DNA of 64,000 nucleotides from Candidatus Latescibacterota bacterium (GCA_963707635.1 OY970173.1:384001-448000), one strand, 5' to 3'; shown: positions 56 through 60,444, counted from the first letter of the stretch. The notes: generated from the sequence alone by a model not told the origin. Numbers and translations: made by a program.

Positions 56-150
56 GGCGACGCATCAGGGGTCGGAGCGCGAATCGCGAGGCGCGCTTTC
101 AACCATTGCGCGCGAAGCGCCTGAGCGCGGAGCGCCCCTGATGCGGCGCC
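56..150 (+). repeat. Structured intergenic repeat, copy A
   Basis: Closing stem CGCATCAGGGG (61-71)/CCCCTGATGCG (135-145) encloses core GCGCGC-TTTCAACCATT-GCGCGC; core homologous to five other copies. Confidence 0.85.
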
Positions 151-169
151 AAGCACATACGGAGAACCC

Positions 170-958
170 ATGCACTGGCTCACCGATCCACAAATCTGGC
201 TGTCGCTGACGACGCTGACCGCGCTCGAGATCGTCCTCGGCATCGACAACATCATCTTCATCGCCATTCTTTCGGCCAAGCTCCCGGCCCACCAGCAGAA
301 CCGAGCGCGGCTCACGGGCCTGGCCATCGCGATGGTGACCCGGGTGCTGCTGCTGCTCTCGCTCACCTGGATGATGAAGCTGACCGCGCCGCTGTTCGGC
401 ATTTTCGGCACCGAAATCTCGGGCCGGGACCTGATCATGATCGCGGGCGGGTTGTTCCTGATCGCCAAGAGCACGCTCGAGATCCATGAAAAGCTGGAAG
501 GCCATCACGAGGAGCGCAGCGTCGCGAAGGCGCGCGCCGTGTTCGGCATGGTCATTATTCAGATCGTGCTGCTCGACATCGTCTTCTCGCTGGACTCGGT
601 CATCACCGCCATCGGCATGTCGAACCACCTCGGGGTGATGGTGGCCGCCGTGATCATCGCGGTCGTCTTCATGATGGGGTTCGCAAGATCGATCAGCCAG
701 TTCGTCGACCGCCACCCGACCATCCGCATGCTCGCGTTGAGCTTCCTGCTCCTGATCGGCGTGTCGCTGGTGGGCGAGGGGCTCGAGTTTCACATCCCGA
801 AGGGATATATCTACTTCGCGATGGCCTTCTCGGTCCTGGTGGAGATGCTGAATCTGCGGCTGCGCAAGGCGACCGAGCCCGTCTCGCTGCACGGACCCAT
901 CGAGGACATGAGGAAATCACAATCGGCGGACCGGATGGAGCCCGCCGGCGACGCCTAG
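170..958 (+). CDS. TerC family integral membrane protein
   Basis: LEIVLGIDNIIFI and DIVFSLDSVITA motifs, multiple TM helices, SD GGAG. Confidence 0.93.
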   Translation: MHWLTDPQIWLSLTTLTALEIVLGIDNIIFIAILSAKLPAHQQNRARLTGLAIAMVTRVLLLLSLTWMMKLTAPLFGIFGTEISGRDLIMIAGGLFLIAKSTLEIHEKLEGHHEERSVAKARAVFGMVIIQIVLLDIVFSLDSVITAIGMSNHLGVMVAAVIIAVVFMMGFARSISQFVDRHPTIRMLALSFLLLIGVSLVGEGLEFHIPKGYIYFAMAFSVLVEMLNLRLRKATEPVSLHGPIEDMRKSQSADRMEPAGDA

Positions 959-967
959 CGCGCGCGA

Positions 968-1201
968 CTAGCGCCGGACCGGCGGGATCGGCTCGTCATC
1001 CGTATTCTTGCGGCGCGGGAATTTTGCGACCAGGACACCGGTCAGGAACCCGATCGCGAGCACGATGACGACCAGCAGGAGCTGCGACACCTGGTACGAC
1101 CAGTTCAAGAACTTGAACGTCGTCGGCTGCGCGTTCTGGATCATGATGATGATCACCAGCACCAGAAACACGACCAAGAGCACCTGTTTGACGGCTTTCA
1201 T
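968..1201 (-). CDS. LapA (lipopolysaccharide assembly protein A)-domain small membrane protein
   Basis: MKAVKQVLL...IQN...F.FLNW pattern with two TM helices; SD GGAGG upstream of ATG 1201. Confidence 0.75.
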   Translation of the reverse strand: MKAVKQVLLVVFLVLVIIIMIQNAQPTTFKFLNWSYQVSQLLLVVIVLAIGFLTGVLVAKFPRRKNTDDEPIPPVRR

Positions 1202-1220
1202 CTCAGCCTCCGTGTGAACG

Positions 1221-1904
1221 CTAAAGAATCGTGTCCGGCCCGATGAGCCCGCCGGAGAGGATGCACTGCATGGCTTCCTCGACCGTCCAGCCCGGATCGC
1301 GCACGTCGGATTCCTTGACAAAGTAGACAAAACCGGACGCCGGGTTGGGCGGAGTCGGCACGTACACCTTGACCAGCACTTCCCCGCTTCCCTTCTCCGT
1401 CACGCTTCCGGTGGCGAACCCGACCTGCCACATCCCCCTCGCCGTGTATGGCACCAGCACCGGGCGCCGGAAAATCTGTTTCTCGGGCAGCGAAAGCGTC
1501 CCCGAGAGCTGCTTGCCGAGCCGGTACGCGGTGCCGATGATCGGAATCCGCTCGGTCAGGCGCGCGAAGCCTGCGAGAAGCTGCCGGCCGAAGACGTTGC
1601 TCGCGATCAGCCCGACCAGATAGAGCGTCACCAGCAGGAGGACGATCCCCAGCCCCGGGAATCGGATATGGAACGTCCGGTCGACGAGGACGATCAGGCG
1701 GCGGTCGATGAAATCATAGAGCAGGTAGATCGCAAAGACAGGAATCGCGATCGGAATCAGCGCGATCGTCCCGCGTATAACGAACCTGCGGATGTGGGCG
1801 ACGAGACCGCGTGCACCGCGCGCGAACGTCGGGGTCAGGCTTTCCTTGCGCTTTTCGTCTTTGGTCGCCTTCGACGTCTTGGTTTTCTTTCGTGTCCCGG
1901 GCAT
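1221..1904 (-). CDS. DUF502 family membrane protein
   Basis: Two TM helices, RIPIIGTAY and VYVPTPPNPASGF motifs. Confidence 0.9.
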   Translation of the reverse strand: MPGTRKKTKTSKATKDEKRKESLTPTFARGARGLVAHIRRFVIRGTIALIPIAIPVFAIYLLYDFIDRRLIVLVDRTFHIRFPGLGIVLLLVTLYLVGLIASNVFGRQLLAGFARLTERIPIIGTAYRLGKQLSGTLSLPEKQIFRRPVLVPYTARGMWQVGFATGSVTEKGSGEVLVKVYVPTPPNPASGFVYFVKESDVRDPGWTVEEAMQCILSGGLIGPDTIL

Positions 1905-1954
1905 CGACCGCGACTCTATCAGAATTGCACCGGAAGTGCTAAGGTCTTATTCCT

Positions 1955-2887
1955 ATGTCGCTTATCTGGCAGTGGGTATTCTTCCACGTCTTCATCGGAC
2001 TCGCGCTGTGGATCGATCTCGGTGTCGTCCACAAGCATCCCGAGCGCGTCACCGCGAAGAAGGCCCTCACATGGAGCGCGGTGTGGGTGTCGCTGGCGCT
2101 GCTCTTCTGCGCCGGGATCTACTACGTCGACGGACAGCACAAGGCAGTTCTGTTTCTGACCGGGTATCTGGTCGAGCAGTCGCTGTCCGTCGACAACCTG
2201 TTCGTCTTCTACGTCATTTTCCAGTACTTCAAGACGCCGAAGAAGTTCGAGCACCGGATTCTGTTCTGGGGAATCATCGCCGCGCTGATCATGCGGCTCG
2301 GGTTCATCCTGGCGGGCGTGGCGCTGCTCGAGCGCTGGCACTGGCTCACCTACCTGCTGGGCGCGTTTCTCGTCTACACCGCGGTGAAACTCGCGGTTTC
2401 CAAAGAGCACGAGGTCCATCCGGAGAAGAACCCACTCTTCCGGTGGCTCAAGCCGTTCATGTCGGGTCACTCGTACGATTCGGGCGCCTTCTTCGTGCGG
2501 CGCGGCAATCGCTGGCTGATCACGCCCGCCATGGTCGTGCTGCTGGTGATCGACTGGACCGACCTCATGTTTGCGCTCGATTCGATCCCGGCCGTCCTCG
2601 GCATCACCACCGACCCGTTCATCGTCTATACCTCGAACGCGATGGCGATCCTGGGGCTGCGCTCGTGGTACTCGGCTCTCGGCAAGCTCATCGTGACCTT
2701 CCACCACTTGAGCCACGGGCTGGCGGTGATCCTCGCCTTCGTCGGCGTCAAGATGATCATCGCGGAGTGGTACACGATCCCGGTCTACTGGGCGTTGGGC
2801 GTCGTCGTGGCGGTGCTCGCCACCACCATCGTTTCGTCGATCTGGTCGAGGAAGAACAGCGAGCGGAAGGCGAGGTCGAGCGGCTAG
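1955..2887 (+). CDS. TerC/Alx family membrane protein
   Basis: GYLVEQSLSVDNLFVF, DLMFALDSIPAV and FIVYTSN motifs. Confidence 0.93.
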   Translation: MSLIWQWVFFHVFIGLALWIDLGVVHKHPERVTAKKALTWSAVWVSLALLFCAGIYYVDGQHKAVLFLTGYLVEQSLSVDNLFVFYVIFQYFKTPKKFEHRILFWGIIAALIMRLGFILAGVALLERWHWLTYLLGAFLVYTAVKLAVSKEHEVHPEKNPLFRWLKPFMSGHSYDSGAFFVRRGNRWLITPAMVVLLVIDWTDLMFALDSIPAVLGITTDPFIVYTSNAMAILGLRSWYSALGKLIVTFHHLSHGLAVILAFVGVKMIIAEWYTIPVYWALGVVVAVLATTIVSSIWSRKNSERKARSSG

Positions 2888-3990
2888 AGCCGCTTGAGTT
2901 TCAGAAACAGATCCGCGAGCGCGCCGTCGATGTTGGCGTTGGCGTGAAAGACCTGGCCACGGATCTCGCTCACCAGCTCGATCGCCGCCGGGAGCTTCGG
3001 GCGCCCGTAGGCGGCGGCAATGCGCTCGATGTCGCTGCCGACGTCCGCGTTCACCCGCAACGATTCTCCCACCATCGCGTCGCGCAGGATCACCGACATC
3101 TCGTTCAACACGCGCGCGACGGCCTCACGATTCGCCCCGCGCGCGCCGACCAGCGCCTGCCCCAGCGCCCACGCCTCCGACTCCTTGCGCAACCCCGCGA
3201 CAATGGCGAGCGCCGCGTCGCGGTCGGCCAGGTCGGTCGAATCCAGCAGCGCGCGGGCGCGCGTGATGGATCCTTGCGCCATCGCCGCGCTTCGCTTCGC
3301 GGTGGGCGCGTCCGCCTCGTAGTAGCCGGTGAGGATGCGCTCCAGCACCGCGCGCTTGAGCGGAAAGAAGCGCACGCGCTGGCAGCGCGAGCGGATCGTG
3401 TAGAGCAGGCTATCTGGATTCGACGTGACGAAGACGATCGCCACGTGCGCGGGCGGCTCTTCCACCAGCTTCAGCAGCGCGTTCTGCGCTTCTTCGCGCA
3501 TCGCGTGCGCGTCGACGAAAATGAACACATGGTAGCGCGCGTCGAATGGCTTGGTGTTGGCGCGCTGGATCACGGCGCGCGCGCGCGCGATGCGAATCGA
3601 TGTCTTCTTGCTGAACGTGGGCGACGAGAAGATGTCCGCGCGCTTTTCTTCGAGGATCTTTGAGATGTCGGCGATGTCGCCCTCTTCGTCCTCGCCGGAG
3701 CCCTGCGTGGGCGTGGGATAGATCAAATGGATGCCGGGGTGTTCCAGCATCGACGCGTGCAGGCACGAGGGGCATTTCGCCCCATCGAGGCTGCAGGTTT
3801 TCTCCCGCTCGCACTGAAGTGCGCGCGCGAACTCGATCGCGGCGAACTCGGTTCCGCTTCCCTCGGGACCGGTGAACAACAACGGCGGGATGCTCCCGCG
3901 CCGGAGCGAACCCAGGTAGGCGCGCGCCTGCGGCTGCTCGAGGTCGAGGGCCGGGAGGGGTCGGGGTGCGTCGGGAGTGCGGGCGGGCAT
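2884..3990 (-). CDS. holB: DNA polymerase III subunit delta'
   Basis: LLFTGPEGSG degenerate Walker A, four-Cys Zn module, AQNALLKLVEEPP, TIRSRC; ATG 3990 preceded by TATACT. Confidence 0.88.
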   Translation of the reverse strand: MPARTPDAPRPLPALDLEQPQARAYLGSLRRGSIPPLLFTGPEGSGTEFAAIEFARALQCEREKTCSLDGAKCPSCLHASMLEHPGIHLIYPTPTQGSGEDEEGDIADISKILEEKRADIFSSPTFSKKTSIRIARARAVIQRANTKPFDARYHVFIFVDAHAMREEAQNALLKLVEEPPAHVAIVFVTSNPDSLLYTIRSRCQRVRFFPLKRAVLERILTGYYEADAPTAKRSAAMAQGSITRARALLDSTDLADRDAALAIVAGLRKESEAWALGQALVGARGANREAVARVLNEMSVILRDAMVGESLRVNADVGSDIERIAAAYGRPKLPAAIELVSEIRGQVFHANANIDGALADLFLKLKRL

Positions 3991-4027
3991 GCAGAGAGTA
4001 TAACGCACGCGGCGGTCGATTGCCGCT

Positions 4028-5201
4028 CTACAGACTCCGCTTCTTCCCCAGCCACCCGGTCGGATCGAGCGCCCGTCGTGCCTTGGCGGACTTCGAAGTG
4101 GCAGACGTAGCCTTCCAGCGATCCCGTGTCGCCGACCTCGGCGATGGCCTGGCCGCGCCCGATTTTCTGTCCCTGCGTCACCATCGTGGAGGCGACGTGC
4201 GCGTAGAGGGTGTAGTACCCGCCGCCGTGATTCAGGATGACGCACTTGCCGAACGCGTCGATCCAGTCGACGAACTCGACCACGCCCGCCGCGACAGCGA
4301 CGATGGGCGCGCCGGCCGTCGCCTGGATATCGAGACCGTTGTTCATGGTGACGGTGCCGTACTTCGGGTGCGTGTGCTTGCCGAAGCCGCGGATCACCTT
4401 GCCGGCTACGGGCCACAAGAGCCGCCCCTTCATCCCGGCGAATTCACCGCTGGGGGGAAGGTCCTTGTCGTTGGCGCCGCCGCGCGCAATGTCGTCGAGA
4501 ATCGCCTGCACGCGCGCCTGGGCTTCCTCCAACTCTTCGATGGCCTGGACGTGCTTGCTCTTTTCGCTTCGAATCTGGGTCAGCGTGGTCTTGCGCCGCT
4601 GCTTCGCATCCTCGAGCCGCTCGTTTTCGGATTCGCGATCGGCGCGAACCTCGGCAATGGTCTGGAGGGCTTCGTTGAGCCGTGACGACTCGGTCTCCAG
4701 CTGCCGCTTGCTCTCGGTCACTTCGCCGATCAGCTTCGCGTCCTGCTCCGCGATGACGCGCATGAACTGGTAGCGCGTGACGGCGTCTTCGACGCTCTTC
4801 GCGCCCAGAACGACCTCCCAGCGATAGCGCGGGTCCTGCTTGTACATGGTGCGGACGCGCCGCGCCAGGGCCTCCTCCTGTTGCGACAGTGTCGCCTCGC
4901 GCCCGCCGATCTGGACCAGGAGCTCGCCGACGCGCCGGTCGACCGCGTTCTCCTGTTCGCCGAGCTTGCGCAGGTACTGCTTCTGCAGTTCGATCTCGCG
5001 GTCGAGGCGCTGGAGGTTCTTGAGCGTTTGCTGTTCCTGCGACGAAAGCTTCTTCGACTCGTCGCGGTGGCTCTGGATCTCGTTACGAATGCGCTCGAGC
5101 TCCCTCTGCTGCTCGGTGATGTCGTCCTGCGCGAGGGCCGCCGTCCCCGCGATGCACGCGAGTGTCAGCGCGAACGAGACGGCGCGGCGAACGGTCGTCA
5201 T
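4028..5201 (-). CDS. envC: Murein hydrolase activator EnvC (coiled coil + degenerate M23 domain); apparent 1-nt frameshift near 3' end
   Basis: Signal peptide, long coiled coil, WPVAG/GLDI/YTLYAH/HFEVR; follows ftsEX; expected tail ALDPTGWL is out of frame and ends at TAG 4028-4030. Confidence 0.85.
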
Positions 5202-6070
5202 GGCTGGGTCTGGAGGATCTTCCGCAGCGCGACGAAGCTGCCCAGCGAGCCGATCAGCACGCAGATCAGCAGGTACAGGAGCGATTTCTCGGTCGAGAAA
5301 AAGGTGATGTCGGGGATGGCGTTGCTGGTGGCCTCCGTGACGACGCGCAGGAGCACGAGCGAGAGGACGGCGGCGACGCCGCCCTGGAAGGCCCCTTCGA
5401 TCACGAACGGCGCCACGATGTACGGGTCGGTGGCGCCGACCAGCTTCAGGATCTCGATGGTCTTGCGGCGGCTGATGACGGTCAGGCGCACCGCATTGGC
5501 GATGATGAACACCGCGGAGAGAATGACGATGAATCCGACCACGCCGTCGATGTAGTAGATGCCGCGCACGATCGACTGGAACTTGTCGATGAACTCCTTG
5601 CCGTAACGAACCTCCTCGACCCCGCTCATGGCCTGGATGCGCGCGGACAGGGCGACCATTGCGTCGCGGTTCTTGAATTCCGGCTTCGGCTCGACGTGGA
5701 ACGAATTGGGCAGCGGATTGGCGCGCAGCGCGTTGAGCATGTCGGCGCCATCGCCGAGCTGGTCGCGAAAATCCTCGAGCGCCTGATCCTTGGAGACGAA
5801 GTTCACGCTCTGCACTTCGTCCTGCTCGAGGATGGTCTGGTAGAGGCCTTCGATCGCGCCCTGGCCGGTGCGATCCTCGAGGTACACGTAGATCTTCATC
5901 TCCTCCTGCGCCTCCCCGACGACCTTCAGGATGTTGTCGGTGGCGAGGAGAAACACGGCCAGCATCAGGAGCGACAGGCTCATGATGATGATCGAAATCG
6001 ACGTCAGCCCCTTGTGGCGCCGCAGCGTGCGCACGGCTTCGTCGACGATATAGTAGATACGCCGCCACAT
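5198..6070 (-). CDS. ftsX: Cell division permease-like protein FtsX
   Basis: NPLPNSF, IEILKLVGAT, PFVIEG motifs; downstream of ftsE. Confidence 0.93.
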   Translation of the reverse strand: MWRRIYYIVDEAVRTLRRHKGLTSISIIIMSLSLLMLAVFLLATDNILKVVGEAQEEMKIYVYLEDRTGQGAIEGLYQTILEQDEVQSVNFVSKDQALEDFRDQLGDGADMLNALRANPLPNSFHVEPKPEFKNRDAMVALSARIQAMSGVEEVRYGKEFIDKFQSIVRGIYYIDGVVGFIVILSAVFIIANAVRLTVISRRKTIEILKLVGATDPYIVAPFVIEGAFQGGVAAVLSLVLLRVVTEATSNAIPDITFFSTEKSLLYLLICVLIGSLGSFVALRKILQTQP

Positions 6071-6073
6071 CGC

Positions 6074-6889
<816 letters not shown>

Positions 6890-6892
6890 GGC

Positions 6893-8029
6893 CTACCGGG
6901 TTCTGCGCGCACGTTTCGGCGCGCCGGATACGACAAGGGCCTCCGCCAGTTTGTACGCCTCGAGGAGCGAGTCCGGTTCTGCGATGCCCCGGCCGGCGAT
7001 ATCGTAGGCGGTGCCGTGATCGACCGACGTGCGCGGGGTCGGAAGTCCGATGGTCACGTTTACGCCGCGTCGCTGCGCCAGCATCTTGAACGGGATCAGC
7101 CCCTGGTCGTGATACATCGTGATGTACGCGTCACTGTACGGCGCGCGCTTTGGCGCGCGACGGGTGGTTCTCGCCAGCCGCGCGCCTCTTTCCACGCGGG
7201 TCCTGCCGGGCAAACGCTCCGGCGCGTTCGCCGCCGCGGGCGCGGACTGGAACATGGCATCGGCCGGGTACGGACCGCTCACGTCGATTCCTTCCGAACG
7301 CAGCCGCTCGATCACGGGGCGGATCACATCGCGGTCTTCGGTGCCGATGACGCCGTCCTCGCCCGCGTGCGGGTTGAGCCCCGCGACCGCGATGCGCGGG
7401 CGTGCGATCCGAAACGTCGAGCGAAGCGCGTCGTGGGTGACCCGAATACAGATTGTCAGCCGGTCCGCGGTCAGGTACCCGGCCACGCGCGCGAGGGGCA
7501 CGTGGCGCGTGAAGGGAATCACCCGCAAGTCGCGTCGCGCCATCATCATCTGGCAGTCGGGCGCATTCAAGTAATGGGCCAACATCTCGGTGTGCCCGGG
7601 GAAGTCGAAGTGCGCCAGATTCAATGACTTCTTGGACGCGGGCGGGGTCACGATCGCGGCCACTGCACGAATTCTGGCCAGCTCGCACGCCCACCGGATC
7701 GAGGTGCCCGCGTGGAGCCCGCCGCCCGCGCTGTCCTGCCCGATCGGGTACTCCGCATCAACGCCCGTATCCATCAGAAGCAGAGCCGGGCGGGCGCTCC
7801 CACGCCTGCGCGAGTGTCGAACCGCCTCGCGCGCCTCGTCAATTGAATTGACCACGGGCGGAGTGAACCGAAAACGGCGCCGCCACCGTAGAAACAGATC
7901 GGGCGCGCCGACCACCAGCGCGATCGAACGTTCCGGCCGGTGGCGCCCGAACAACCTCGCGACGATTTCGGGGCCGATCCCCCCGGGCTCGCCGGAGGTC
8001 ACCGCGATGAAAGGCAGCGAGGTGCGCAA
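6893..8029 (-). CDS. pdxA: 4-hydroxythreonine-4-phosphate dehydrogenase PdxA
   Basis: GEPGGIGPE, FPGHTE, GLNPHAGE, MYHDQG, RTSVDHGTAYDIAG; TTG start at 8029 is an estimate. Confidence 0.92.
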   Translation of the reverse strand: MRTSLPFIAVTSGEPGGIGPEIVARLFGRHRPERSIALVVGAPDLFLRWRRRFRFTPPVVNSIDEAREAVRHSRRRGSARPALLLMDTGVDAEYPIGQDSAGGGLHAGTSIRWACELARIRAVAAIVTPPASKKSLNLAHFDFPGHTEMLAHYLNAPDCQMMMARRDLRVIPFTRHVPLARVAGYLTADRLTICIRVTHDALRSTFRIARPRIAVAGLNPHAGEDGVIGTEDRDVIRPVIERLRSEGIDVSGPYPADAMFQSAPAAANAPERLPGRTRVERGARLARTTRRAPKRAPYSDAYITMYHDQGLIPFKMLAQRRGVNVTIGLPTPRTSVDHGTAYDIAGRGIAEPDSLLEAYKLAEALVVSGAPKRARRTR

Positions 8030-8057
8030 GAGCGACGAGCCCGTGGTTGCGGCGAGC

Positions 8058-9860: not shown

Positions 9861-9877
9861 TGGTTCTTCCGGGTGCC

Positions 9878-9967
9878 GGTGGTGTGCACTCCCTCCGCCG
9901 CCGTCCTCCCGCGCACAATGTTGATATGCGCGACTGCGGATTAGCGTCCGAGGGAGTGCACACCACC
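9878..9967 (-). repeat. Structured intergenic repeat, copy F (inverted)
   Basis: Perfect 18-bp closing stem GGTGGTGTGCACTCCCTC/GAGGGAGTGCACACCACC; reverse complement differs from copy E at 5 positions over 77 nt. Confidence 0.9.
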
Positions 9968-9979
9968 CCAACGAACAAA

Positions 9980-10070
9980 GGGCGATATATCGGGCGAAGC
10001 GCGATTTCGCGAGTCGCGCGTGTCAACTTGTGCGCGCGAGCGCATGAGCGCGGAGTCCGATATATCGCCC
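9980..10070 (+). repeat. Structured intergenic repeat, copy B
   Basis: Perfect 14-bp closing stem GGGCGATATATCGG/CCGATATATCGCCC enclosing core CGCGCG-TGTCAACTTG-TGCGCG...ATGAGCGCGGA. Confidence 0.85.
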
Positions 10071-25700: not shown

Positions 25701-25793
25701 GGCGCTGCGCGCGTCGTTCGACGCGATTTCACGAGGCGCGCTTTCAACCATCGCGCGCGAAGTGCATGAGCGGAGAACGATGCGCGCTGCGCC
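25701..25793 (+). repeat. Structured intergenic repeat, copy C
   Basis: 19-position closing stem (one T-T mismatch, one G-T) enclosing core GCGCGC-TTTCAACCATC-GCGCGC...ATGAGCGGA. Confidence 0.88.
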
Positions 25794-50828: not shown

Positions 50829-50842
50829 GGGTGTTGCGCCGC

Positions 50843-52293: not shown

Positions 52294-52309
52294 GATTTCA
52301 CGTGAAATC
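52294..52309. promoter_or_regulatory. parS-like site 1
   Basis: Perfect 16-bp palindrome GATTTCACGTGAAATC; central 12 bp equal the parS consensus core. Confidence 0.8.
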
Positions 52310-52351
52310 TGCCCGGTGGGCCATGATGTGGTCCACTGCTCCCTCGCCTGT

Positions 52352-52367
52352 GGTTTCACGTGAAATC
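52352..52367. promoter_or_regulatory. parS-like site 2
   Basis: GGTTTCACGTGAAATC, 58 bp from site 1. Confidence 0.78.
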
Positions 52368-52383
52368 TCGAAGTCCGTCACGC

Positions 52384-53016
52384 TCACCCTTTTTCGTGCA
52401 TGGTCGGCTTCGGGGTGCCGTACAGCCGAGGGTCGCCATCGAACTTCGCAGCCGTTTCGCTCGAGGCGAAGTAGAACAAACGGCCACCAAATGACCGGAC
52501 TGGGGAGGCATCCGCGGGCTGGAACCGAACCAGGCTTACCGGGTCGGTCACCTTGCCGCAGTAGCGATACGGCGCCGAAACGAAGGTTCTCAACGCCTCG
52601 TCATCTGATACGAAATAGACCTCATGATTCAAGAACGCGCGGTGGGACGCGTCGATAGTCGCGTCGCGGGCGGGATCCACGGCACACTTGAGGTGGGCCC
52701 CCATGTCCAGCAAATACGGTTCCGGACCTTGCACGAAGGTCGCTGCGCAGGGGCTTCAGCAGAACCCAACCGGCTGCCCGTTCACGTAGACCGCCGGCAT
52801 CTTCGGGTTCAGGCGTGTTTTCCTGACCGCACAGCGATCGTTGATGGTCACCAGATTCGTCTCGAAGTAACGCAACCGCGGAAATGAGTCCTCGGGGCTG
52901 ATCACTTCTGCCAGCTCCATGTAGTGGTGCTTGTCCTTGCCCTTCTTGGAACAGGCCGACAGCACCAGCGCCACCAGGGCGGTAATGAGAATCGCTCGCC
53001 AGCGCATCTGAATCAT
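52384..53016 (-). CDS. Putative selenoprotein: lipoprotein with three YHS/TRASH-like repeats, CUxxC motif
   Basis: Track ORFs 52756..53028 and 52384..52734 are one frame split only by TGA 52756-52758 in GFC-TGA-SPC; lipobox LSAC; SD GGAGG. Confidence 0.8.
52725..52741 (-). promoter_or_regulatory. Putative bacterial SECIS element
   Basis: GACCUU-CGUGC-AAGGUC stem-loop beginning 14 nt after in-frame UGA. Confidence 0.6.
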
Positions 53017-53047
53017 GCGGACCTCCAAGAATCCCCTCTAACGCGAG

Positions 53048-53680
53048 TCATGATACCCCGAAACGGTACAACGCGTATCTCCCGTATTCGCCTGAAGTCG
53101 AAGACATCAATGTGAAGGATCCTCGCGCGCCTTCGGGAGTGCTGTCACGAGGAATTGTCGACATGAATCGAGCCCCCGGCAGGAGGAGCCCCTCGATCTC
53201 ACCCGCCATCTCCAGCGGCGCACCGACCGCCATGGTAACCGCCACGGAGTACCGTCTCCGATGTTTTTCCGAACGGGCGGCGGCATACGCTTCGCCGCCG
53301 AATACCTCGACATTCGCCAGGGGAATAGATCGGACGAGGCGCTCGAGGAAGGCTACCTTGCGCTCGCGGCGTTCGATCAGGAGCACCGGCACACTCGGCT
53401 GCAGGATGGCCCACACGGCTCCGGGGAAGCCGGCCCCCGACCCGATATCCACGATCGCATCGCCTGCCGCTATGGCGACGAGACTCTCGATCTCCAGACT
53501 CTCGAGGAGGAGGCGCTCGCAGGTGGCGACCGGGTCCCGACGCGAGACGAGTGCAATCTCGCGCGTCCAGGTCAGAACCTCGGTCAGATACCGGGTGAGC
53601 CCGTCGACGACGGCTGGCTCATACGATGTAACATATTTATTTACAATTAGTTGCGCTGATTCACCGGGGAGTGGTTCCAT
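53048..53680 (-). CDS. rsmG: 16S rRNA m7G527 methyltransferase RsmG/GidB
   Basis: VDIGSGAGFPG, LIE...RKVAFL; follows mnmG. Confidence 0.88.
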   Translation of the reverse strand: MEPLPGESAQLIVNKYVTSYEPAVVDGLTRYLTEVLTWTREIALVSRRDPVATCERLLLESLEIESLVAIAAGDAIVDIGSGAGFPGAVWAILQPSVPVLLIERRERKVAFLERLVRSIPLANVEVFGGEAYAAARSEKHRRRYSVAVTMAVGAPLEMAGEIEGLLLPGARFMSTIPRDSTPEGARGSFTLMSSTSGEYGRYALYRFGVS

Positions 53681-55543
53681 CTAGGACCGCGGGTGCCGGT
53701 ACCGCTCGACATGAACCGCCAGGATGGACAGATCGGCCGCCCGGACTCCGGCGATTCGCGAGGCTTGACCGATCGTCTCTGGGCGCTTGCGGGTGAGTTT
53801 CTCCCGGGCTTCGGTGCTTAATCCGACCACGCCGTCGAACGCGAAGTCGTGCGGAATCGATCTGGACTCCAGATCGCGGAGCGACTGAACGTCGCGGGCC
53901 TGCCTCGCCACATAGCCTTCGTATTTCACCGAACACTCCACGGCGTCATCGAAGCGTGAATCCTCGCCGATCGCACCCATCTCGCGCAGATGGCGGCAGC
54001 GCACCAGCGGCCGGCGCAACACATCGCGCAGCGACGTGGGATGCCTGACCGGTTCGAGCCCGTGTAGATCGAAGACCTCGTTGCCGATTCCCGCCGGGAA
54101 GCTCGTCGTCCCGAGCCGCGAGACGATATCGTCCACGGCGGTCCGTCGCGCGAGCGCGGCGTCGAGTGCCGCGCTCGGGACGAGCCCGAGCCGATGTCCG
54201 ACATCCATCAGACGCTCGTCGGCGTTGTCCTGCCGGAGCAGCAACCGGAACTCCGCCCGGCTGGTGAACATTCGATAGGGTTCGTCGATCTCTTTCGTGG
54301 TGAGATCGTCCATCATCACGCCGATGTAGGCGAGATCGCGGGCCAGCACGAGCGGGGCTTCGTCGCGCAGAGCCAGCACCGCGTTGACTCCGGCCATGAA
54401 GCCCTGCGCGGCGGCTTCCTCGTAGCCGGAGGTTCCATTGACCTGTCCCGCGAAGTAGAGACGCGGGATGAACTTCGACTCCATCGTGCGATGAAGCTGT
54501 TCGGGCGGGAAGAAATCGTATTCGACCGCGTAGCCGGGGCGCGCCATGCGCGCACGCTCGAAGCCCGGGATGGATTCCAGAATGGCGAGCTGCACGTCGA
54601 CCGGCAGACTCGTGGAGATGCCGTTGAGGTAGAGCTCTGGATGGTCGATCCCTTCCGGCTCGACGAACACCTGGTGCCGGGTCTTGTCGGCGAAACGAAC
54701 CACCTTGTCCTCGATCGACGGGCAGTACCGCGGCCCAATGCCCTCGATGACACCCCCGTAGAGGGGGGAACGAGAAAGATTCTGCCGAATGACGTCGTGC
54801 GTTCGTTCGGTGGTGTATGTGAGGTGGCAAAGAACCTGCGGCTGCTCAATGCGGCGGGTTCGATAGGAGAACGGCACCGGTGGATCGTCGCCCGGCTGGG
54901 GCTCGAAGCGGGACAGATCCACGCTGTCGCGAAACACGCGCGGCGGCGTTCCGGTCTTCAAACGACCCATTCGAAGCCCCAGCGACTGGAGACTCCGGGA
55001 AAGGGACGAGGCAGCGGGCTCTCCCTCACGCCCACCATCGGTGCGACGCTCCCCGGTGTGCATGAGCCCGCGCAGAAAGGTCCCGGTCGTCAGCACACAC
55101 GCCCGCGCGTTTACAATCTCCGAGCCCGCGAGCTTGACTCCAGCGAACCCATTGTCCGACACGAGGATTTCTTCGACCTCGGTCTCAAGGACATCCAGGT
55201 TGGACTGCGCGGCGGTGGTTTCCTGCATGAGCCGGCTGTAGAGCCGTTTGTCAACCTGGGCGCGCGGGGACCACACGGCCGGGCCCTTGGCCCGGTTCAG
55301 CATCCGAAACTGGATGCCCGCGCGGTCCGTCGCCCGGCCGATTTCGCCGCCAAGCGCGTCGAGTTCTTTGACGAGGTGGCCCTTGGCCAGCCCGCCGACG
55401 GCCGGGTTGCACGGCATGTGTCCGATCCGATCGCGCCGGAGCGTCAGCAGCAACGTCTGCAGTCCCATCCGGGCCGAGGCAAGGGCCGCCTCGCAGCCGG
55501 CGTGTCCGCCGCCAATCACGATTATTTCAAATGTCTTAGGCAT
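53681..55543 (-). CDS. mnmG: tRNA uridine 5-carboxymethylaminomethyl modification enzyme MnmG/GidA
   Basis: GGGHAGCEAA, MPCNPAVGG, KTGTPPR, GPRYCPSIEDK, GTSGYEEAAAQG. Confidence 0.97.
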   Translation of the reverse strand: MPKTFEIIVIGGGHAGCEAALASARMGLQTLLLTLRRDRIGHMPCNPAVGGLAKGHLVKELDALGGEIGRATDRAGIQFRMLNRAKGPAVWSPRAQVDKRLYSRLMQETTAAQSNLDVLETEVEEILVSDNGFAGVKLAGSEIVNARACVLTTGTFLRGLMHTGERRTDGGREGEPAASSLSRSLQSLGLRMGRLKTGTPPRVFRDSVDLSRFEPQPGDDPPVPFSYRTRRIEQPQVLCHLTYTTERTHDVIRQNLSRSPLYGGVIEGIGPRYCPSIEDKVVRFADKTRHQVFVEPEGIDHPELYLNGISTSLPVDVQLAILESIPGFERARMARPGYAVEYDFFPPEQLHRTMESKFIPRLYFAGQVNGTSGYEEAAAQGFMAGVNAVLALRDEAPLVLARDLAYIGVMMDDLTTKEIDEPYRMFTSRAEFRLLLRQDNADERLMDVGHRLGLVPSAALDAALARRTAVDDIVSRLGTTSFPAGIGNEVFDLHGLEPVRHPTSLRDVLRRPLVRCRHLREMGAIGEDSRFDDAVECSVKYEGYVARQARDVQSLRDLESRSIPHDFAFDGVVGLSTEAREKLTRKRPETIGQASRIAGVRAADLSILAVHVERYRHPRS

Positions 55544-55581
55544 CAAAAATTGACAATCATGGTTCTCGCTGGTTGACAGTT

Positions 55582-56982
55582 TCACTTCCCAATACAGAAC
55601 CGCGAGAAGATCGCGTCCAGGAGTCCGTCGTGATACTGCCGTCCCACGGCTTCCTCATAGTCGGCGAGCACGGATCGGGCGCGAACCGCGATCAGCTCCA
55701 GCGGCTCGCGATCCCGGATCATCCCACCGAGTTCCTCGAGCTGCGACCGCGCGTCCTCCAACAACGCGACCAGGCGGGCATTGAGAATCGCTCGCGCGCG
55801 CGCCATTCGAGTCAGCGCTTCGGCCCCGGTCAGCCGGACCATGGCGGCGCGAAGATCATCCAGGCCGCGGCCGGTGAGCGCCGACACGTGAATTGTCTCG
55901 ATCCCCGGCGCCGTCATCCGCACTCCGCGCTGCGATGCGGACCCGTGCAGCAGGTCGGCCTTATTCATTACCACGAGACTCCGGGCCGCGTCGAGATCAC
56001 GGAGCGACAGCAGTGACTCCCCGTCCAGTTCGCCGGCGGACGCGTCGACCACGAAGAGCACCGCGTCGGCCGCCTGCGTGGCGTCCACCGCTCGATCCAT
56101 GCCGATGGCTTCCACGCGATCCACCTCGCCCGCCCGAAGGCCCGCGGTGTCGTGCAGCACGAATGGCACGCCGTCGATCACCAGCGTCTCGCGGAGCACG
56201 TCCCGCGTGGTCCCCGGGATCTCGGTCACGATGGCGCGGGCCTCTCCCACCAGCCGGTTGAAAAGACTGCTCTTGCCGGCGTTGACCGGCCCGGCGATGA
56301 CCACCCGGTATCCGTCGCGAAGTGGCCGGGCCAGCGCGGCGCTGCCGAGGAGGTCATCGATCTCGTCGCGCTGCCGCGAGATGATTTCCAGCGCCTCCGG
56401 CACATTCAGGGCGTCGATGCCCTCCTCGATGAAATCGATGTTGGCTTCCACCACGCCGAGCAGACCCAACATGTCGTCCGCGAGCGCGCCGACGCGCCGG
56501 GAGAGCCCGCCGGCCAGCTGGCGCTCAGCGACCGAGCGTTGCAGCTCCGAGCGCGCGTGGATCAAGTCCGCCACGGCTTCCGCCTGGATCAGGTCGATCT
56601 TGCCGCTCAAGAATGCCCGTTTGGTGAACTCGCCGGGTTCGGCCGGCCGCGCCTCGCACGCAAACAGCACCTCCAGGACCCGCGCGACCACCGCACTTCC
56701 CCCATGGCAGCTGATCTCGACCACGTCTTCACCGGTGTACGACTCGGGCCCCCGCATCACCGCGGCCATCACGTCGTCGACCCGGGCCCCGTGCGCGTCG
56801 AAGAACCCGCCGTGATAGAGACGGCGATGCTCCCAGGACGGCTCGAACGCGCCGCCGGCGGGTGTACGGAGAACGGTGGCGAGCACGTCCAGCGCCCGCG
56901 AGCCGGACATCCGCACGACCGCAATGCCCGATTCGCCCGGCGGCGTAGCCAACGCCGCGATCGTATCCGTGTGAAGTGCCAT
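55582..56982 (-). CDS. mnmE: tRNA modification GTPase MnmE/TrmE
   Basis: DTIAALATPPG, SYTGEDVVE, GPVNAGKSS, GTTRD, DTAG, NKAD, FCIGK. Confidence 0.97.
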   Translation of the reverse strand: MALHTDTIAALATPPGESGIAVVRMSGSRALDVLATVLRTPAGGAFEPSWEHRRLYHGGFFDAHGARVDDVMAAVMRGPESYTGEDVVEISCHGGSAVVARVLEVLFACEARPAEPGEFTKRAFLSGKIDLIQAEAVADLIHARSELQRSVAERQLAGGLSRRVGALADDMLGLLGVVEANIDFIEEGIDALNVPEALEIISRQRDEIDDLLGSAALARPLRDGYRVVIAGPVNAGKSSLFNRLVGEARAIVTEIPGTTRDVLRETLVIDGVPFVLHDTAGLRAGEVDRVEAIGMDRAVDATQAADAVLFVVDASAGELDGESLLSLRDLDAARSLVVMNKADLLHGSASQRGVRMTAPGIETIHVSALTGRGLDDLRAAMVRLTGAEALTRMARARAILNARLVALLEDARSQLEELGGMIRDREPLELIAVRARSVLADYEEAVGRQYHDGLLDAIFSRFCIGK

Positions 56983-57028
56983 GGAACCTGGAATTCTAGC
57001 ATGCGGAGCGCACTGCCTGAGGGTGGGA

Positions 57029-57105
57029 TGCACTCCCTCGGACGCCAATCCGCAGTCGCGCATTTCAACCATTGTGCGCGGGAGGACGGCGGTAGAGGGA
57101 GTGCA
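57029..57105 (+). repeat. Structured intergenic repeat, copy E
   Basis: Closing stem TGCACTCCCTC/GAGGGAGTGCA enclosing core CGCGCA-TTTCAACCATTG-TGCGCG. Confidence 0.9.
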
Positions 57106-57124
57106 GCCAGCCCCCGTGGCCGCC

Positions 57125-58072
57125 CTAGGGGGTCGGAGGATTCACGTAGAAACCCACCGAGTCGACCGACGTCGAGCCGAATAGCCCGATGCCGCCCTCC
57201 ACATGGAAGATCGGGCGGTTGAACGAGTCCCCGGCCTCGCCGCCGAAACCGATCCCCGCTCCACCCAGCACCGGATCCGTGCGCGCGAGGTCGAACCAGT
57301 TCCGGTCCATGGCGAAGACGCGCATCTTGTAGCTGCCCGCGAAGTAGATCGCGAGCCACGGTATCCGGATGGCGGTCGTCGTCGCCACCGCGAATGGCGG
57401 TGAGCTGTTGGTGCGTGTGAAGTTGTCGAGGTCTTCTTCGTCGAGGAAATCGGCGTCGATGAGAAGCGGCGAGGCGAGGTCGAGGCTGGCGAGCCCAACC
57501 TGATACCCCTGCGCGGGCGTCACGTCCAGCCGGATCTCGACCAGCCCCTCCGTATAGACCAGCTGATTCTCGGGCTGGTAGTACACGGAGTCACCCGTGT
57601 CGGCGAACGTCGACATGCGCTGCAGGACCGTCGCACCGGTATCGTCGAGCAGCACCCACTCGCGCACCTGAATCGGCGCCGGGGTCGTCGTCGTCGCGCG
57701 GAGCGTCCCCCCGTCGGGCAGATCCACGGTGAGATCGTACCGGGTGGAGGGAAGTATTACGGCTCCCGTGATCGGAGCCACGTAGTGGCCGCTGCTTCCA
57801 CCCTGATAGTCGAGGGAGCCACCATTCCAGGAGATCGTCACGGTTGCCGAGGCAATGCCCGCCCTGGCCAGCGAGAAGGGCTCGTCCGGCGCCAGCGTGC
57901 GGGTGAGGTAGAGGTCGGGAAAGGTCTCGCCGACCACGAGCATCGCGTCGACGACCGGCACGCCGACGCCCCCCGGCGCGAACAACTCGTCCGGATCGCG
58001 ATCGGTCGAGCACGCGGCCATCGACATCAGCGCGGCGACACCGATCCACTGCGCGAGCCTTGCACGGCGCAT
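57125..58072 (-). CDS. Lipoprotein, DUF4249-like (TonB-receptor associated)
   Basis: Lipobox MAAC, PVVDAML, C-terminal VEGGIGLFGS; TGATG coupling to upstream receptor. Confidence 0.75.
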   Translation of the reverse strand: MRRARLAQWIGVAALMSMAACSTDRDPDELFAPGGVGVPVVDAMLVVGETFPDLYLTRTLAPDEPFSLARAGIASATVTISWNGGSLDYQGGSSGHYVAPITGAVILPSTRYDLTVDLPDGGTLRATTTTPAPIQVREWVLLDDTGATVLQRMSTFADTGDSVYYQPENQLVYTEGLVEIRLDVTPAQGYQVGLASLDLASPLLIDADFLDEEDLDNFTRTNSSPPFAVATTTAIRIPWLAIYFAGSYKMRVFAMDRNWFDLARTDPVLGGAGIGFGGEAGDSFNRPIFHVEGGIGLFGSTSVDSVGFYVNPPTP

Positions 58073-60327
58073 CAGAACCATACGTTCACTCCCAGGCTGG
58101 GGATGATCGGAAGCATCCTCGCCACGTCCACGTCCACGGTGGAGGTGTCGCGCTGGTACTGCACGAACCACTCGTTGCGGCGGCTGTACACGTTGAACAC
58201 TTCCACCAGCCACTCCGCCCGGGCGCCGAAGAGGGAGAAGTCGCGGGCGACGCCCACATCGAGGCGGTTGTACGGAAGCAGACGGGCGCTGTTCTTGTCG
58301 GCGTAGAGGAGCTCGATGTCCTCGGGGATCACGCCCGTGGTCGGGTCGCGGAGCGAATAGCGGCCGTCCACGGGTGTGAACGCCTGTCCGGTGGCGTAGA
58401 CGAACGCGCCCGAGAACCTCCAGGGCCCGCGCGCGTACGCCGCCACCGCGCTCAGGTCGTGGCGCCGGTCGTACTTGGGTGGAAACTCCGCGCCCTGGTT
58501 GACCTCGGGGAACGTTCGCCGCGTCCAGCCAAGCGTGTACCCCAGCCAGCCGGTGAGCGGTCCCGCGTCACGGCGCAGGAAGAACTCGACTCCGGTGGCG
58601 TAGCCGCTGCCTCCCAGGTAGAACAAGTCGTCCGTCGTGGCCACCTCGGCGTCGACCGGTGTCGAATTGTCGAGCAGGACCAGGTTGTCGAGATCCGTGT
58701 AGTAGCCTTCGACCGACACCAGCCACGACGGCGTCCATCGCCAGTCGACGCCACCGGTCGCCTGCACGGACCGCCCAATATCGGTCGACGCGTCGATCGG
58801 CACGTAGAAGTCGGCCGCCGAAATCGCTTCGGTCGCCACCAGCTGCAGATACTGGTGATAGATACCCCCACCCAGTTTGAGGCGGACCGTCTCGCCGAGA
58901 TTGTCCGCGAGCGCCAGCCGCGGCTCGAACAGCCAGCGCCCGCCGTCGTCGATGTAGCGCACGCGCAGGCCCGCGTTCACGGCCGCCTCCGCCCACGGGG
59001 TCCAGCGATCCTCCGCAAACAGGGCGAGTTCGAACGGCTCGCGCCGGTAGTCGAACACGGTCTCGGAGTTGAAATTCCGCGAGAAGGCCGCCTGGTAGCT
59101 CGAGCCTTCGAGGCCCATCGTCACCGTGTGCCGGAGATTCACGGCCCAGGTGAGTTCCCCCGCCGCCGTGTAGTCTCGAATGCCGTTCTCGAACGAAGCC
59201 GGCGTCGTGAATGCGGTCGCGGTGGTGTAGCTCGCATAATCGCTGTACGAGAGGCGCGCGGTTGCGATCAGCCGCGCGCTGAGCGCGCGCACGAACGCGG
59301 CGCTCACCACCGTGTTGCCCCATTTGAGGTTGAGATACGTGTCCTCGTCGAGCGTGAAGTCGAGCTGGTCGTGTCCGGTATAGACCGACAGCTCAACACG
59401 TCCCCCGCCGGCGGGTACGGCGAACTTCCCATTCGCGTCGTAGAAATAGTAGTCCGGGACCTCGGTGTCCTCGTCTCGAATCAATTCGAGCATTGGCTCC
59501 AGGTGCGTCCGCCGGGCGCTCGCGGACCACGACCCTCGCCCCGCGGGTCCGTCCAGCGCGAGCCGGGACGCGATCGTGCTGATGCCGGCTTTTCCGCCGA
59601 GGTGGCGCGCGGCGGCATCGCGCGTGCGCACGTCGAGCACGGCTCCCAGCCGGCCGCCCCGATCCGCCGGGTAGGCCCCCTTGTACAGGCTCACGTCCCC
59701 GATCGCATCCGCGTTGAAGGTCGAGAAAAAACCGAACGCGTGGGTGGGGTTGTAGACGGTCGCCTGATCGAGGAGTACCAGGGTCTGGTCCGGCCCGCCG
59801 CCGCGGACATACAGGGCGCTGGAAAAATCGGATGCGGCCTGGACCCCGGGGATCAGCTGCAACGTCCGGATCGGGTCCGCCTCCGCGACCCCGGGCAGCG
59901 ACGCGAGCCGGTCGGCGGGGATGGAAACGAAGCCCGTCTGCTCGTCGCGGGCCTGCGTGAGGCGGTCCGCATCGACCCCGACTCCTTCGACCGGAATCGG
60001 CGAGACCGTCAGCGCGGCGTCGAGCGTGTACTCGCGGTCTTCGGCCACGAGCACGCTGTCCTCGCGCATCGTATAGCCGACGCGCGCGAAACGCACGAGG
60101 TAACGGCCGAGCGGGACCGCCGCAAAGAAATACTGCCCGTTGGAAAGACTCAGCTGGCCGCGGGCGACCTCATCGCCCGCGAGTGACCGGCCGAGCAACT
60201 GAACAGTGACGAAGCCCAGCGGCTCGCCAGCTTCCGCGTCGCGCGTCACGCCGCGCACGGTCGACGCCAACGCCTCGACCGGCGACACCAGCGCAACGAC
60301 GAGAGCAATGGATGCAAGTAGGCGCAT
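58072..60327 (-). CDS. TonB-dependent receptor with N-terminal carboxypeptidase-regulatory-like domain
   Basis: Signal peptide, LQLIPGV, VRGGGPDQ plug, GFFSTFN, beta-barrel ending in WF. Confidence 0.92.
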   Translation of the reverse strand: MRLLASIALVVALVSPVEALASTVRGVTRDAEAGEPLGFVTVQLLGRSLAGDEVARGQLSLSNGQYFFAAVPLGRYLVRFARVGYTMREDSVLVAEDREYTLDAALTVSPIPVEGVGVDADRLTQARDEQTGFVSIPADRLASLPGVAEADPIRTLQLIPGVQAASDFSSALYVRGGGPDQTLVLLDQATVYNPTHAFGFFSTFNADAIGDVSLYKGAYPADRGGRLGAVLDVRTRDAAARHLGGKAGISTIASRLALDGPAGRGSWSASARRTHLEPMLELIRDEDTEVPDYYFYDANGKFAVPAGGGRVELSVYTGHDQLDFTLDEDTYLNLKWGNTVVSAAFVRALSARLIATARLSYSDYASYTTATAFTTPASFENGIRDYTAAGELTWAVNLRHTVTMGLEGSSYQAAFSRNFNSETVFDYRREPFELALFAEDRWTPWAEAAVNAGLRVRYIDDGGRWLFEPRLALADNLGETVRLKLGGGIYHQYLQLVATEAISAADFYVPIDASTDIGRSVQATGGVDWRWTPSWLVSVEGYYTDLDNLVLLDNSTPVDAEVATTDDLFYLGGSGYATGVEFFLRRDAGPLTGWLGYTLGWTRRTFPEVNQGAEFPPKYDRRHDLSAVAAYARGPWRFSGAFVYATGQAFTPVDGRYSLRDPTTGVIPEDIELLYADKNSARLLPYNRLDVGVARDFSLFGARAEWLVEVFNVYSRRNEWFVQYQRDTSTVDVDVARMLPIIPSLGVNVWF

Positions 60328-60344
60328 GGTTGTTTGCCTATCAG

Positions 60345-60444
60345 GCGGGGCGAGCGTGACATTGCTCGGACGCGAATCCGCAGCGCGCTTTCAACCATCG
60401 CGCGCGAGGACCTGAGCGGAAGAGCGATGTCGCGCTCGCTCCGC
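60345..60444 (+). repeat. Structured intergenic repeat, copy D
   Basis: 23-bp closing stem with three G-T wobbles on + strand, enclosing core CGCGC-TTTCAACCATC-GCGCG...CCTGAGCGGA. Confidence 0.9.

Follow-up and report, generated by a model that had tools for sequence, protein, structure and literature searches.

The six hairpins in the window, a stretch of 64,000 nucleotides from a Candidatus Latescibacterota bacterium, are true members of a dispersed hairpin repeat family of Krumholzibacteria-type bacteria, which has 73-74 copies of about 95 nt in the genome of that organism (G000; other G codes denote relatives). We give a probability of about 0.5 to the reading that the family is a non-autonomous mobile element, similar to REPINs and the Rickettsia palindromic elements (RPE), that acts as folded single-stranded DNA (ssDNA), with stems likely kept paired by template switching and a mobiliser provided in trans. 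A structured, strand-specific and uncatalogued element with a conserved core and a variable but paired stem had been proposed from the sequence alone, and this description was upheld by Rfam, pairing and G-T tests.

All six hairpins were present at the positions given by the sequence-only reading (Table 1), and DNA folding of each was better than that of its shuffles (6/6, z from -3.3 to -8.3). Our own gene calls placed the six between genes, as claimed; for mnmE, the longest-ORF call starts within 57029-57105, and the coding-model start lies about 40 nt outside the copy. The limits 57029-57105 were too narrow for this copy, which is present and extends imperfectly to about 57021-57113, and a 322-nt contig of the sequencing run X3 spanned this longer interval with 0 differences. 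Four of the six copies are antisense to co-directional genes, again as described. The stem said to be shared by copies E and F, letters that were out of coordinate order, is the TGCACTCCCTC stem of 9878-9967 and 57029-57105. The core type of the type III copy was also found in G005, G007 and G013 and inside the tilS gene of G002, and at the junction of the type IV copy G002 carries a copy that differs in core type and whose arms are unrelated.

Table 1. Copies of the element and one neighbouring repeat in the window.
Position	Strand	Feature	Context
56..150	+	Copy, own closing stem, CGC/GCG middle stem	Divergent genes on either side; lies upstream of terC (170-958); 67 bits
9878..9967	-	Type I copy, shared TGCACTCCCTC stem	Half of head-to-head doublet with 9980..10070
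9980..10070	+	Type II copy, shared GATATATCGG stem	Other doublet half; 3' end abuts stop codon (10072) of converging surA-like gene
25701..25793	+	Type III copy, CAC/GTG middle stem, own closing stem	19 nt from stop codon of opposite-strand MoxR-type AAA gene
57021..57113	+	Type I copy	Flanked by DUF4249 gene and mnmE, each on -
60345..60444	+	Type IV copy, TCC/GGA middle stem, 23-bp own stem	Between jag/eloR and TonB-plug gene
60477..60489	+	Right end (GACAGGACCCGCG) of second, separate repeat family	Beside copy 60345-60444

Among the matches listed, the element was present in 28 of the 41 genomes searched, G000 included, and relatives held from 0 to 36 matches each, some near-complete ones having none. 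A search of the genome collection with the core pattern returned at least 48 stretches, known G002 copies not being among them, and 46 loci were checked against the model, with two duplicates left out; two stretches from unrelated taxa gave no match to the model, and viral contigs gave 0 matches to the pattern. The family was uncatalogued, as had been supposed: Rfam found nothing in the window at gathering score, and an E-value search with eight loci gave only miRNA hairpin models, far below their cut-offs. No covariance model of TwoAYGGAY or another Rfam family matched at gathering score, and no description of the family was found in the literature within reach of our search.

Read from its base, the fold opens with a closing stem of about 20 bp and free sequence. 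A tandem G-A, CGC/GCG and another tandem G-A follow, then a short segment with a bulge, the 3-bp stem that covaries and a GCA/GA loop; the tip is formed by a GCGCG stem and its loop, which differs by lineage and spans about 3 to 45 nt. The conserved part is a rod that carries two tandem G-A loops, of which the inner was detected in 159 and the outer in 97 of 179 parsed copies. The middle stem had appeared to covary in the window, and this was borne out with TCC/GGA in 135 copies, CAC/GTG in 21, CGC/GCG in 18, TGC/GCA in two, and CCC/GGG, GTC/GAC and TTC/GGA in one each, in a parse that demanded pairing of that stem and left 39 of 218 copies unparsed. This stem was counted by a separate parse because the models R1 and R2 put it out of register (61-62% paired). 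Covariation of pairs was also supported, with 92.8% paired as compared with 62.1% when shuffled and 27-51% when slid, in an alignment that had been fitted to the model. RNAalifold on the first MAFFT alignment recovered the inner stem only, because the arms were misaligned there. Inspection led us to abandon a kink-turn reading, as 2 bp separate the bulge from the G-A tandem. The apical loop TTTCAACCATY, reported as part of the shared core, was exact in four of the six window copies (four matches vs 0.56 expected), but it is not conserved family-wide. Replacement of loops is suggested by a sole hint, the mixed long and short loops in G001 and G015. The heptamer GCGNAGC is an extra-stable DNA mini-hairpin. 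It ended six of eight short-loop copies in one distant genus (g59), with N being A, T or G; it was confined to that genus, where the copies are related, and was absent from the G000 loops. For a related tetraloop, the RNA form is described as much less stable in the available part of one report (PMC13037366).

The closing stem keeps its pairing and length, 18-24 bp in 60 of 73 copies, and not its sequence. The claim that outer stems differ between copies held for type III, whose arms were 0.46 identical vs 0.44 when shuffled though the cores were 0.88 identical, but types I (23 copies) and II (21 copies) share stems across 44 loci, with arm identities of 0.76 (shuffled 0.43) and 0.80 (shuffled 0.42), respectively. 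Most copies in G002 have near-identical cores, and arm conservation decays outward there and in g59. At orthologous sites, arms scored a median of 9.0 vs a background of 5.5 and were homologous at eight of 15 multi-genome junctions; at the four junctions with a G000 type I or II copy, the arms were unrelated in relatives (4/4). By these sequence comparisons, the stem appears to be inherited with the locus and to have travelled with the core where testable. Template switching is described as homogenising hairpin arms and inverting spacers in the accessible sections of two reports (PMC8604942; PMC5941160). Since switching from arm to arm can yield pairing, the pairing of the closing stem alone is not a proof of selection, and only the G-T bias and the fixed stem length point to selection on one folded strand.

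Copies were mostly just downstream of stop codons, and occupied 19 of 285 convergent, five of 285 divergent and 39 of 2077 co-directional junctions. An arm overlapped a stop codon by more than 2 nt in only one of 72 copies, probably a gene mis-call. Ten doublets were found, each a head-to-head heterodimer whose halves are about 0-18 nt apart, too close for a promoter between them, and the -10-like TANNNT was not enriched near singles (11/54 upstream vs 13/54 on the other side). Flank repeats indicated no target-site duplication (length of 3.58 vs 3.66 when shuffled), and no base was conserved beyond either end in 72 copies. Among 54 syntenic junctions filled in a relative, the element was missing from G000 at 43 and held at 11, with background rates unmatched for spacer class. 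Junctions between ribosomal-protein genes were filled in some species and were spacers of 20-50 nt in others; many empty sites were spacers of 1-30 nt with no hairpin, and some empty junctions held small hairpins. Orientation was opposite at eight of 15 multi-genome junctions, three of these with homologous arms. Copies were thus gained, lost, flipped and replaced at orthologous sites, and contigs of five DNA runs, with fragmentary coverage, revealed no within-species excision or empty site. The rpsN-rpsH copy was kept in nine genomes at about 78% nucleotide identity, and such very old copies suggest host selection besides selfish spread. The idea of a genome-wide homogenisation of cores was cut back, because the rpsN-rpsH core type tracks the locus in these nine genomes and the core of the G002 tilS copy is unlike other G002 copies.

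The tilS gene has received two independent in-frame insertions, in G002 and G012. The G012 copy belongs to a stem family found at two further loci of that genome (L213 and L214). Four TilS clusters have kept an encoded copy, at 64-100% identity, and the peptide from the element is more conserved than its flanks. Within the protein the element took the place of a conserved strand-forming motif, a clear example of new protein sequence arising from a repeat. Over about 11 nt, the G002 copy has an inner 5' arm that resembles G009 sequence; the G009 tilS segment is not a clean empty site because a motif of the second repeat family sits in it. A metagenome search for close tilS relatives gave best segments of 25-54% identity and no clean empty site.

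The search for a mobiliser in G000 gave 0 matches for Y1_Tnp (also 0 of 16 congeners, the relatives being incomplete assemblies), the RAYT model, IS110, the integron integrase IntI and, in this genome only and with a search that could miss divergent forms, reverse transcriptase. Two Y1 loci tested in other genera had no copy of the element, and IS110 occurred in four of 16 congeners, none of them G001, G002, G012 or G015. Of 133 neighbour proteins, 87 were scanned and none proved to be a mobilising enzyme. Four HNH genes and one split DUF559 gene were all at least 18 kb from any copy, and the sole small GIY-YIG gene, whose product is in our own reading probably UPF0213-like, belongs to a tight operon and is 20 kb away from the closest copy; a cd10448 GIY-YIG gene flanked by the element was not found. 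G000 also carries XerC/XerD-like genes and one integrase fragment.

It had been noted that wobbles in copies C and D fall as G-U on one strand, although four copies are antisense to the surrounding mRNA, and this bias was real and independent of mRNA direction. The G-T:A-C ratio was 50:13 overall, 17:6 for leading and 33:7 for lagging copies, and 58:20 in relatives; control post-stop hairpins showed the bias on the mRNA strand (102:35, 171 hairpins). The G-A strand was favoured under both energy sets, in 64 and 67 of 72 copies, and copies had no leading or lagging preference in placement (31:42). One strand is favoured irrespective of the direction of transcription or replication. Tandem G-A loops and G-U wobbles are common features of RNA, and the fixed stem length would suit a double-strand-RNA ruler. 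It is possible, though unlikely, that the element works at the RNA level, its G-A strand being transcribed by read-through or antisense, released by an RNase III-like enzyme cutting at the foot of the ~20-bp stem, and either bound by protein or retro-copied, as suggested for TwoAYGGAY. For 41 of 73 copies (SA 22, SS 19), the G-A strand is the one read from the upstream gene, and TwoAYGGAY offers parallels, with long stems at its base, copy numbers that vary widely and 68.4% divergent doublets, according to the part of the preprint available (bioRxiv 10.64898/2026.09.22.753630). However, the G-T bias peaks in copies for which the other strand is read into mRNA (24:4), promoters have no room in doublets and no -10 enrichment at singles, no reverse transcriptase was found in G000, the g59 apex is the GCGNAGC heptamer, and orientation flips at fixed loci are tolerated.

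Under the preferred reading of a folded ssDNA element, the G-A-rich strand would likely be copied whole to new sites by a trans factor that recognises the conserved core and requires a paired stem of roughly two helical turns, whatever its sequence. New copies land mostly right after stop codons with no target duplication, and young subfamilies share arms. After insertion, the arms may pass down with the locus and drift; template switching between them would transfer any change in one arm to the other and also invert the core, and younger subfamilies may overwrite or re-colonise occupied sites. Copies would persist because a long post-stop stem is tolerated either way round, and this stem is possibly useful for mRNA processing or stability. 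The ssDNA model draws on the copy number, the mobility at orthologous sites and in tilS, the arms that travel with the core, the strand bias, the DNA-type apex of g59 and the tight doublets. Several observations count against it: tandem G-A and G-T wobbles fit RNA too, the G-A strand is favoured under both energy sets, the GCGNAGC apex is confined to one distant genus, copies have no leading or lagging preference, some copies are very old, the fragmentary within-species contigs gave no empty site, and no mobilising enzyme was found in the searches above. Among the options of the sequence-only reading, the mobile hairpin is favoured by presence and absence, flips and in-frame insertions; a discrete ncRNA is conceivable, with nothing observed in its favour.

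Movement of the core only, with a closing stem made anew at every site, either by inverted copying of the adjacent DNA or by capture of a hairpin already there, would explain type III arms no closer than shuffled, the outward decay of arm conservation in G002 and g59, the resemblance of the G002 tilS arm to G009 and the small hairpins at some empty junctions. We consider it improbable, as the G012 tilS arm is a member of a genome-wide stem family, the 44 loci of types I and II have arms in common, arms scarcely overlap stop codons, G009 offers no clean empty site, and many empty sites are short and hairpin-free. A domesticated host signal, immobile now, is also doubtful. Such a signal, whether a site for a chromosome protein or a hairpin that serves the processing or stability of mRNA, would have spread through ordinary recombination with template switching, and it would fit the enrichment at convergent junctions, the long retention in ribosomal-protein operons, the conserved TilS peptide and the lack of a mobiliser. 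Against it, young homogeneous subfamilies differ between genomes, copies have inserted into an essential gene, no match was found in some near-complete relatives, and in many copies the strand that is conserved is not that of the mRNA. The attC-like recombination site for an integron integrase or other tyrosine recombinase, also among the earlier options, is unsupported and largely refuted, for although a stem conserved only in structure, a preference for one strand, single-base bulges seen now and then 5-7 bp from the core and one G098 copy about 450 nt upstream of an intI gene recall attC, aligned copies have no RYYYAAC/GTTRRRY ends, IntI occurs in one of 16 congeners and not in G000, yet in 55 of 84 genomes of a family almost without the element, a copy is near only one of 30 intI loci and on the side away from the AT-rich cassette-like ORFs, and the neighbours of copies are housekeeping genes.

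More tentatively, the family may be the first tractable example of a class of inside-out ssDNA hairpins that replicate without a transposase, in which the G-A-rich core would recruit a housekeeping DNA-processing protein, any stem of ~20 bp would serve as a length gauge, older copies would be overwritten, and peptide loops would be donated to essential proteins such as TilS.

When compared with known systems, the element does not resemble a MITE, since target duplication was not seen and arms are unconserved in types III and IV. Nor does it resemble a retroelement such as a retron, retrozyme or UG27 array, as far as the reverse transcriptase search of G000 goes. IS200/IS605 elements reportedly have a leading/lagging preference, and this family has none. 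Integron attC sites conserve stem structure over sequence and prefer one strand; the element differs in having neither R-box ends nor a cassette array, and its distribution is opposite to that of IntI. NTS/SRM repeats with SsnA GIY-YIG nucleases, in the portion of the source available (PMC11893778), are repeated hairpins acting as ssDNA and read by a small trans protein, a model for the missing factor; these SRMs are of 20-50 nt and flank the ssnA gene, whereas the element is of ~95 nt and not beside a GIY-YIG gene. TwoAYGGAY (RF01731), from what could be consulted of PMC2864571 and the preprint cited above, resembles the element in a conserved apical module on a long basal stem and an unexplained spread, but it places two AYGGAY hairpins on a junction, unlike our single unbranched G-A rod from a different phylum. 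Like the element, the RPEs have inserted in frame into housekeeping genes, among them the gene of a tRNA-modification enzyme (RPE-1 lies in truB, in the sections available of PMC3733652), and have no known dedicated transposase, although most copies of the element are intergenic. REPIN/REP/BIME repeats with RAYT, as far as the accessible text of PMC3116915 and PMC3733652 goes, are likewise dispersed extragenic hairpins at gene 3' ends with head-to-head heterodimers, compensatory changes in a part constrained in length and pairing, clustering with other repeats and rare intragenic copies; REPINs conserve both ends and vary the middle, whereas the element conserves the middle and frees its ends, has no terminal GTAG or CGTC tag, and no RAYT was found. 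CGTC REPs, compared with the element by tag only, have stems of 8-9 bp and a terminal tag, unlike it. For the study of how orphan bacterial palindromic repeats such as CGTC REPs, RPEs and TwoAYGGAY spread with no known transposase, this family is a sharply defined substrate: its conserved core is short, its stem is bound only by pairing and length, a single strand is active, and its orthologous sites are dated.

The ~95-nt hairpin repeat (first family) was examined genome-wide in the genome that contains the window, G000 (window at G000:C1:384001-448000; 3.2 Mb, 66% GC, single contig, 96% complete; 2648 genes by its own hexamer model). The six hairpins of the sequence-only reading were found as described, folding much better than shuffles, and a profile built on them retrieved 73 copies at E <= 0.01, a number unchanged through three rounds; with covariance model R1 there were 75 matches, at 74 loci because one was hit on both strands. 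The closing stem is 18-24 bp long in 60 of the 73 copies, which fall into types I (23), II (21), III (18) and IV (11). Its two halves, the arms, are common within type I and within type II; type III has a core identity of 0.88 and an arm identity of 0.46 (shuffled, 0.44), and arm identity in type IV is slightly higher than shuffled (0.51 vs 0.41). Neither target-site duplications nor conserved bases beyond either end were detected in the 72 copies parsed. The copies occupy 63 junctions (convergent 19/285, co-directional 39/2077, divergent 5/285), and in 49/72 the 3' end points at a stop codon that lies a median 9 nt away. Ten doublets were observed, every one a head-to-head heterodimer and nine of them type I with type II. 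Contexts in relatives resemble those of G000 (AA 24, SA 22, SS 14, AS 4; 64 classifiable of 77 matches).

R1 matched 28 of 41 genomes (15/16 congeners, 9/13 of the sister family). A second model, R2, run on 151 genomes with 27 candidates scored in each, matched 11/11 congeners, 8/9 genomes of family f2, 6/33 of f5 and 2/61 of f3, but gave no match in the five remaining families; the f5 matches are true divergent members. No match was obtained in viral contigs. Individual features are listed in the table.

Coordinates of individual features in G000, the window and other genomes
Location	Feature	Remarks
G000:C1:309588-309686 (-)	Lone copy of core type typical of f5	Adjoins rpoZ-like gene; one such copy each also in G010, G012, G033; probably an old relic
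G000:C1:1850050	Copy with same arms in G012 and L027 (G013)	In L027 one gene further, after tfoX-like gene, suggesting a local hop
L140:1501-2078 (G105)	Three copies in 600 bp	No ORFs between; inner arms common, outer arms and loops differ
L149:1463-1584 (G087)	Degenerate copy	Arms ~33 bp, perfect; terminator-like hairpin inside core
L157:9862-12477 (G098)	Complete integron integrase	AT-rich ORFs and attC-like start on 3' side
G000:C1:3198817-3199127	DUF559 gene	Split over two frames
G000:C1:806248-806385	Integron-integrase-like fragment	C-terminal
L105:1133-2254 (G026)	Topoisomerase VI subunit A gene	Adjoins copy; homologue in G000
Window 170-958, 1955-2887	Two nearby terC-family genes	After first copy
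Window 60477-60489	Second repeat family	

The part conserved between G000 and its relatives folds as a rod with no branches: the closing stem is followed by G-A/G-A, CGC/GCG, a second G-A/G-A, a short segment with a bulge, a stem of 3 bp, GCA/GA, a GCGCG stem and finally the loop. In alignments fitted to the model, and with relatives that are not independent, 92.8% of cells were paired in 109 distinct copies, against 62.1% when shuffled and 27-51% with slid partners, and 93.4% in a second set of 79; two-sided changes affected all 17 closing-stem pairs of the 109. The covariation proposed for the middle stem was borne out, this stem occurring as TCC/GGA, CAC/GTG, CGC/GCG, TGC/GCA, CCC/GGG or GTC/GAC in the 179 copies, out of 218, that could be parsed when pairing was required. 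The inner G-A tandem was present in 159 of these 179 and the outer in 97. The TTTCAAC loop, proposed as part of the shared core, is not family-wide: G001, G002, G026 and f5 have loops of their own.

The wobble bias noticed in the window also extends to the genome, since a strand-neutral arm alignment of G000 gave G-T:A-C of 50:13 on the strand with the tandem G-A core (G-A strand), or 57:13 under looser trimming; relatives gave 58:20. Split by context, the 27 copies lying antisense to both flanking genes gave 24:4 and those in sense orientation 9:4; copies in convergent spacers gave 11:4 and those in divergent ones 6:1. The excess was present on both replication strands, and ordinary post-stop hairpins, used as control, gave 102:35 on the mRNA strand. 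From the antisense excess, its presence on both replication strands and the mRNA-strand bias of the controls, we infer that the G-A strand, not the mRNA, is constrained; transcription- or replication-linked mutation bias would not predict this pattern. Weighed against these counts, an element acting as RNA is conceivable, albeit unlikely. In genus g59 of f5, 6/8 short-loop copies have a GCGNAGC apex, a hint from related copies of a single genus; part of PMC13037366 describes this motif as an extra-stable DNA mini-hairpin, related RNA hairpins being much less stable.

Gain and loss were analyzed at 54 syntenic junctions occupied in a relative, where G000 is occupied at 11 (three being ribosomal-protein junctions, also chosen on purpose) and not at 43. 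Of 15 junctions sampled in at least two genomes, 8 have homologous arms and 8 show the copy flipped, three of the latter with homologous arms. Relatives have unrelated arms at young type I or II junctions of G000 (4/4). The arms at rpsN-rpsH are related in nine genomes and have undergone compensatory changes; in G001 and G015 the copy there is inverted, and a remnant arm lies upstream of it. In young families the core takes its arms along when it moves, and in old ones the arms remain at the locus; set beside this, rebuilding of the arms from the target seems improbable. A weak observation, from one low-depth contig of DNA sequencing run X2, is that a doublet adjoins 39 nt left over from an additional type I arm. 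The tilS gene was invaded in frame twice: in G002 the copy took the place of ~20 codons, and in G012 it added ~29 residues to a linker, its arm belonging to the stem family of other G012 loci. At the protein level only, the G002-type insertion was found in four TilS clusters (64-100% identity), across which both arm-encoded segments show matching changes. Given such movement, we hold out little prospect for a domesticated, non-mobile signal.

Further inserts of repeat origin seem to be present in this loop of TilS, which looks like an insertion hot spot: P0005 and P0006 (G009, L129) have traces of a second repeat family, and P0007 an unexplained insert. This second family (~72 copies in G000, GCGGGTGGC...GACAGGACCCGC) has conserved ends and a variable middle, the classical REPIN/MITE layout, with a C-GNA-G apex that is confined to one strand (17:0). 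Six matches lie inside called genes, and no mobiliser for it was seen. It is often found at junctions where relatives hold the first family, occupying 8 of the 43 first-family-free junctions, and 72/2647 genome-wide.

No Y1/RAYT, RT, IS110 or IntI was found in G000, where small GIY-YIG, HNH and DUF559 genes lie at least 18 kb from any first-family copy; neighbour proteins scanned in relatives (87/133) were ordinary, with no mobiliser among them. One G098 copy adjoins intI, but an attC-like site is highly improbable, because IntI (99/201 genomes of the class, nearly absent from the window's genus) is distributed across the class opposite to the first family, and no copy lies near any of the 29 other intI loci.

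Our best reading, with a probability of about 0.5, is a non-autonomous mobile element working as folded ssDNA. This would be copied by a trans factor reading the core and requiring ~20 bp of stem; template switching, as treated in parts of PMC5941160 and PMC8604942, could produce arm pairing and core inversion, and young copies may overwrite old ones. By itself, template switching would give perfect pairs and would leave the G-T bias and fixed stem length unexplained; the folded G-A strand would therefore have to be under selection as well.

The first family is undescribed in the literature searched, whose supplements could hold uncatalogued motifs. TwoAYGGAY, as far as parts of bioRxiv 10.64898/2026.09.22.753630 and PMC2864571 describe it, has a similar layout and doublets, and its model gave no match to the first family. 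Our family behaves like a REPIN/RPE-type repeat, but differs from REPINs, as portrayed in portions of PMC3116915 and PMC3733652, in having no conserved ends and no terminal tag, and no RAYT was found. For the trans factor missing here, the Ssn/SRM system, from what part of PMC11893778 reports, provides a model.
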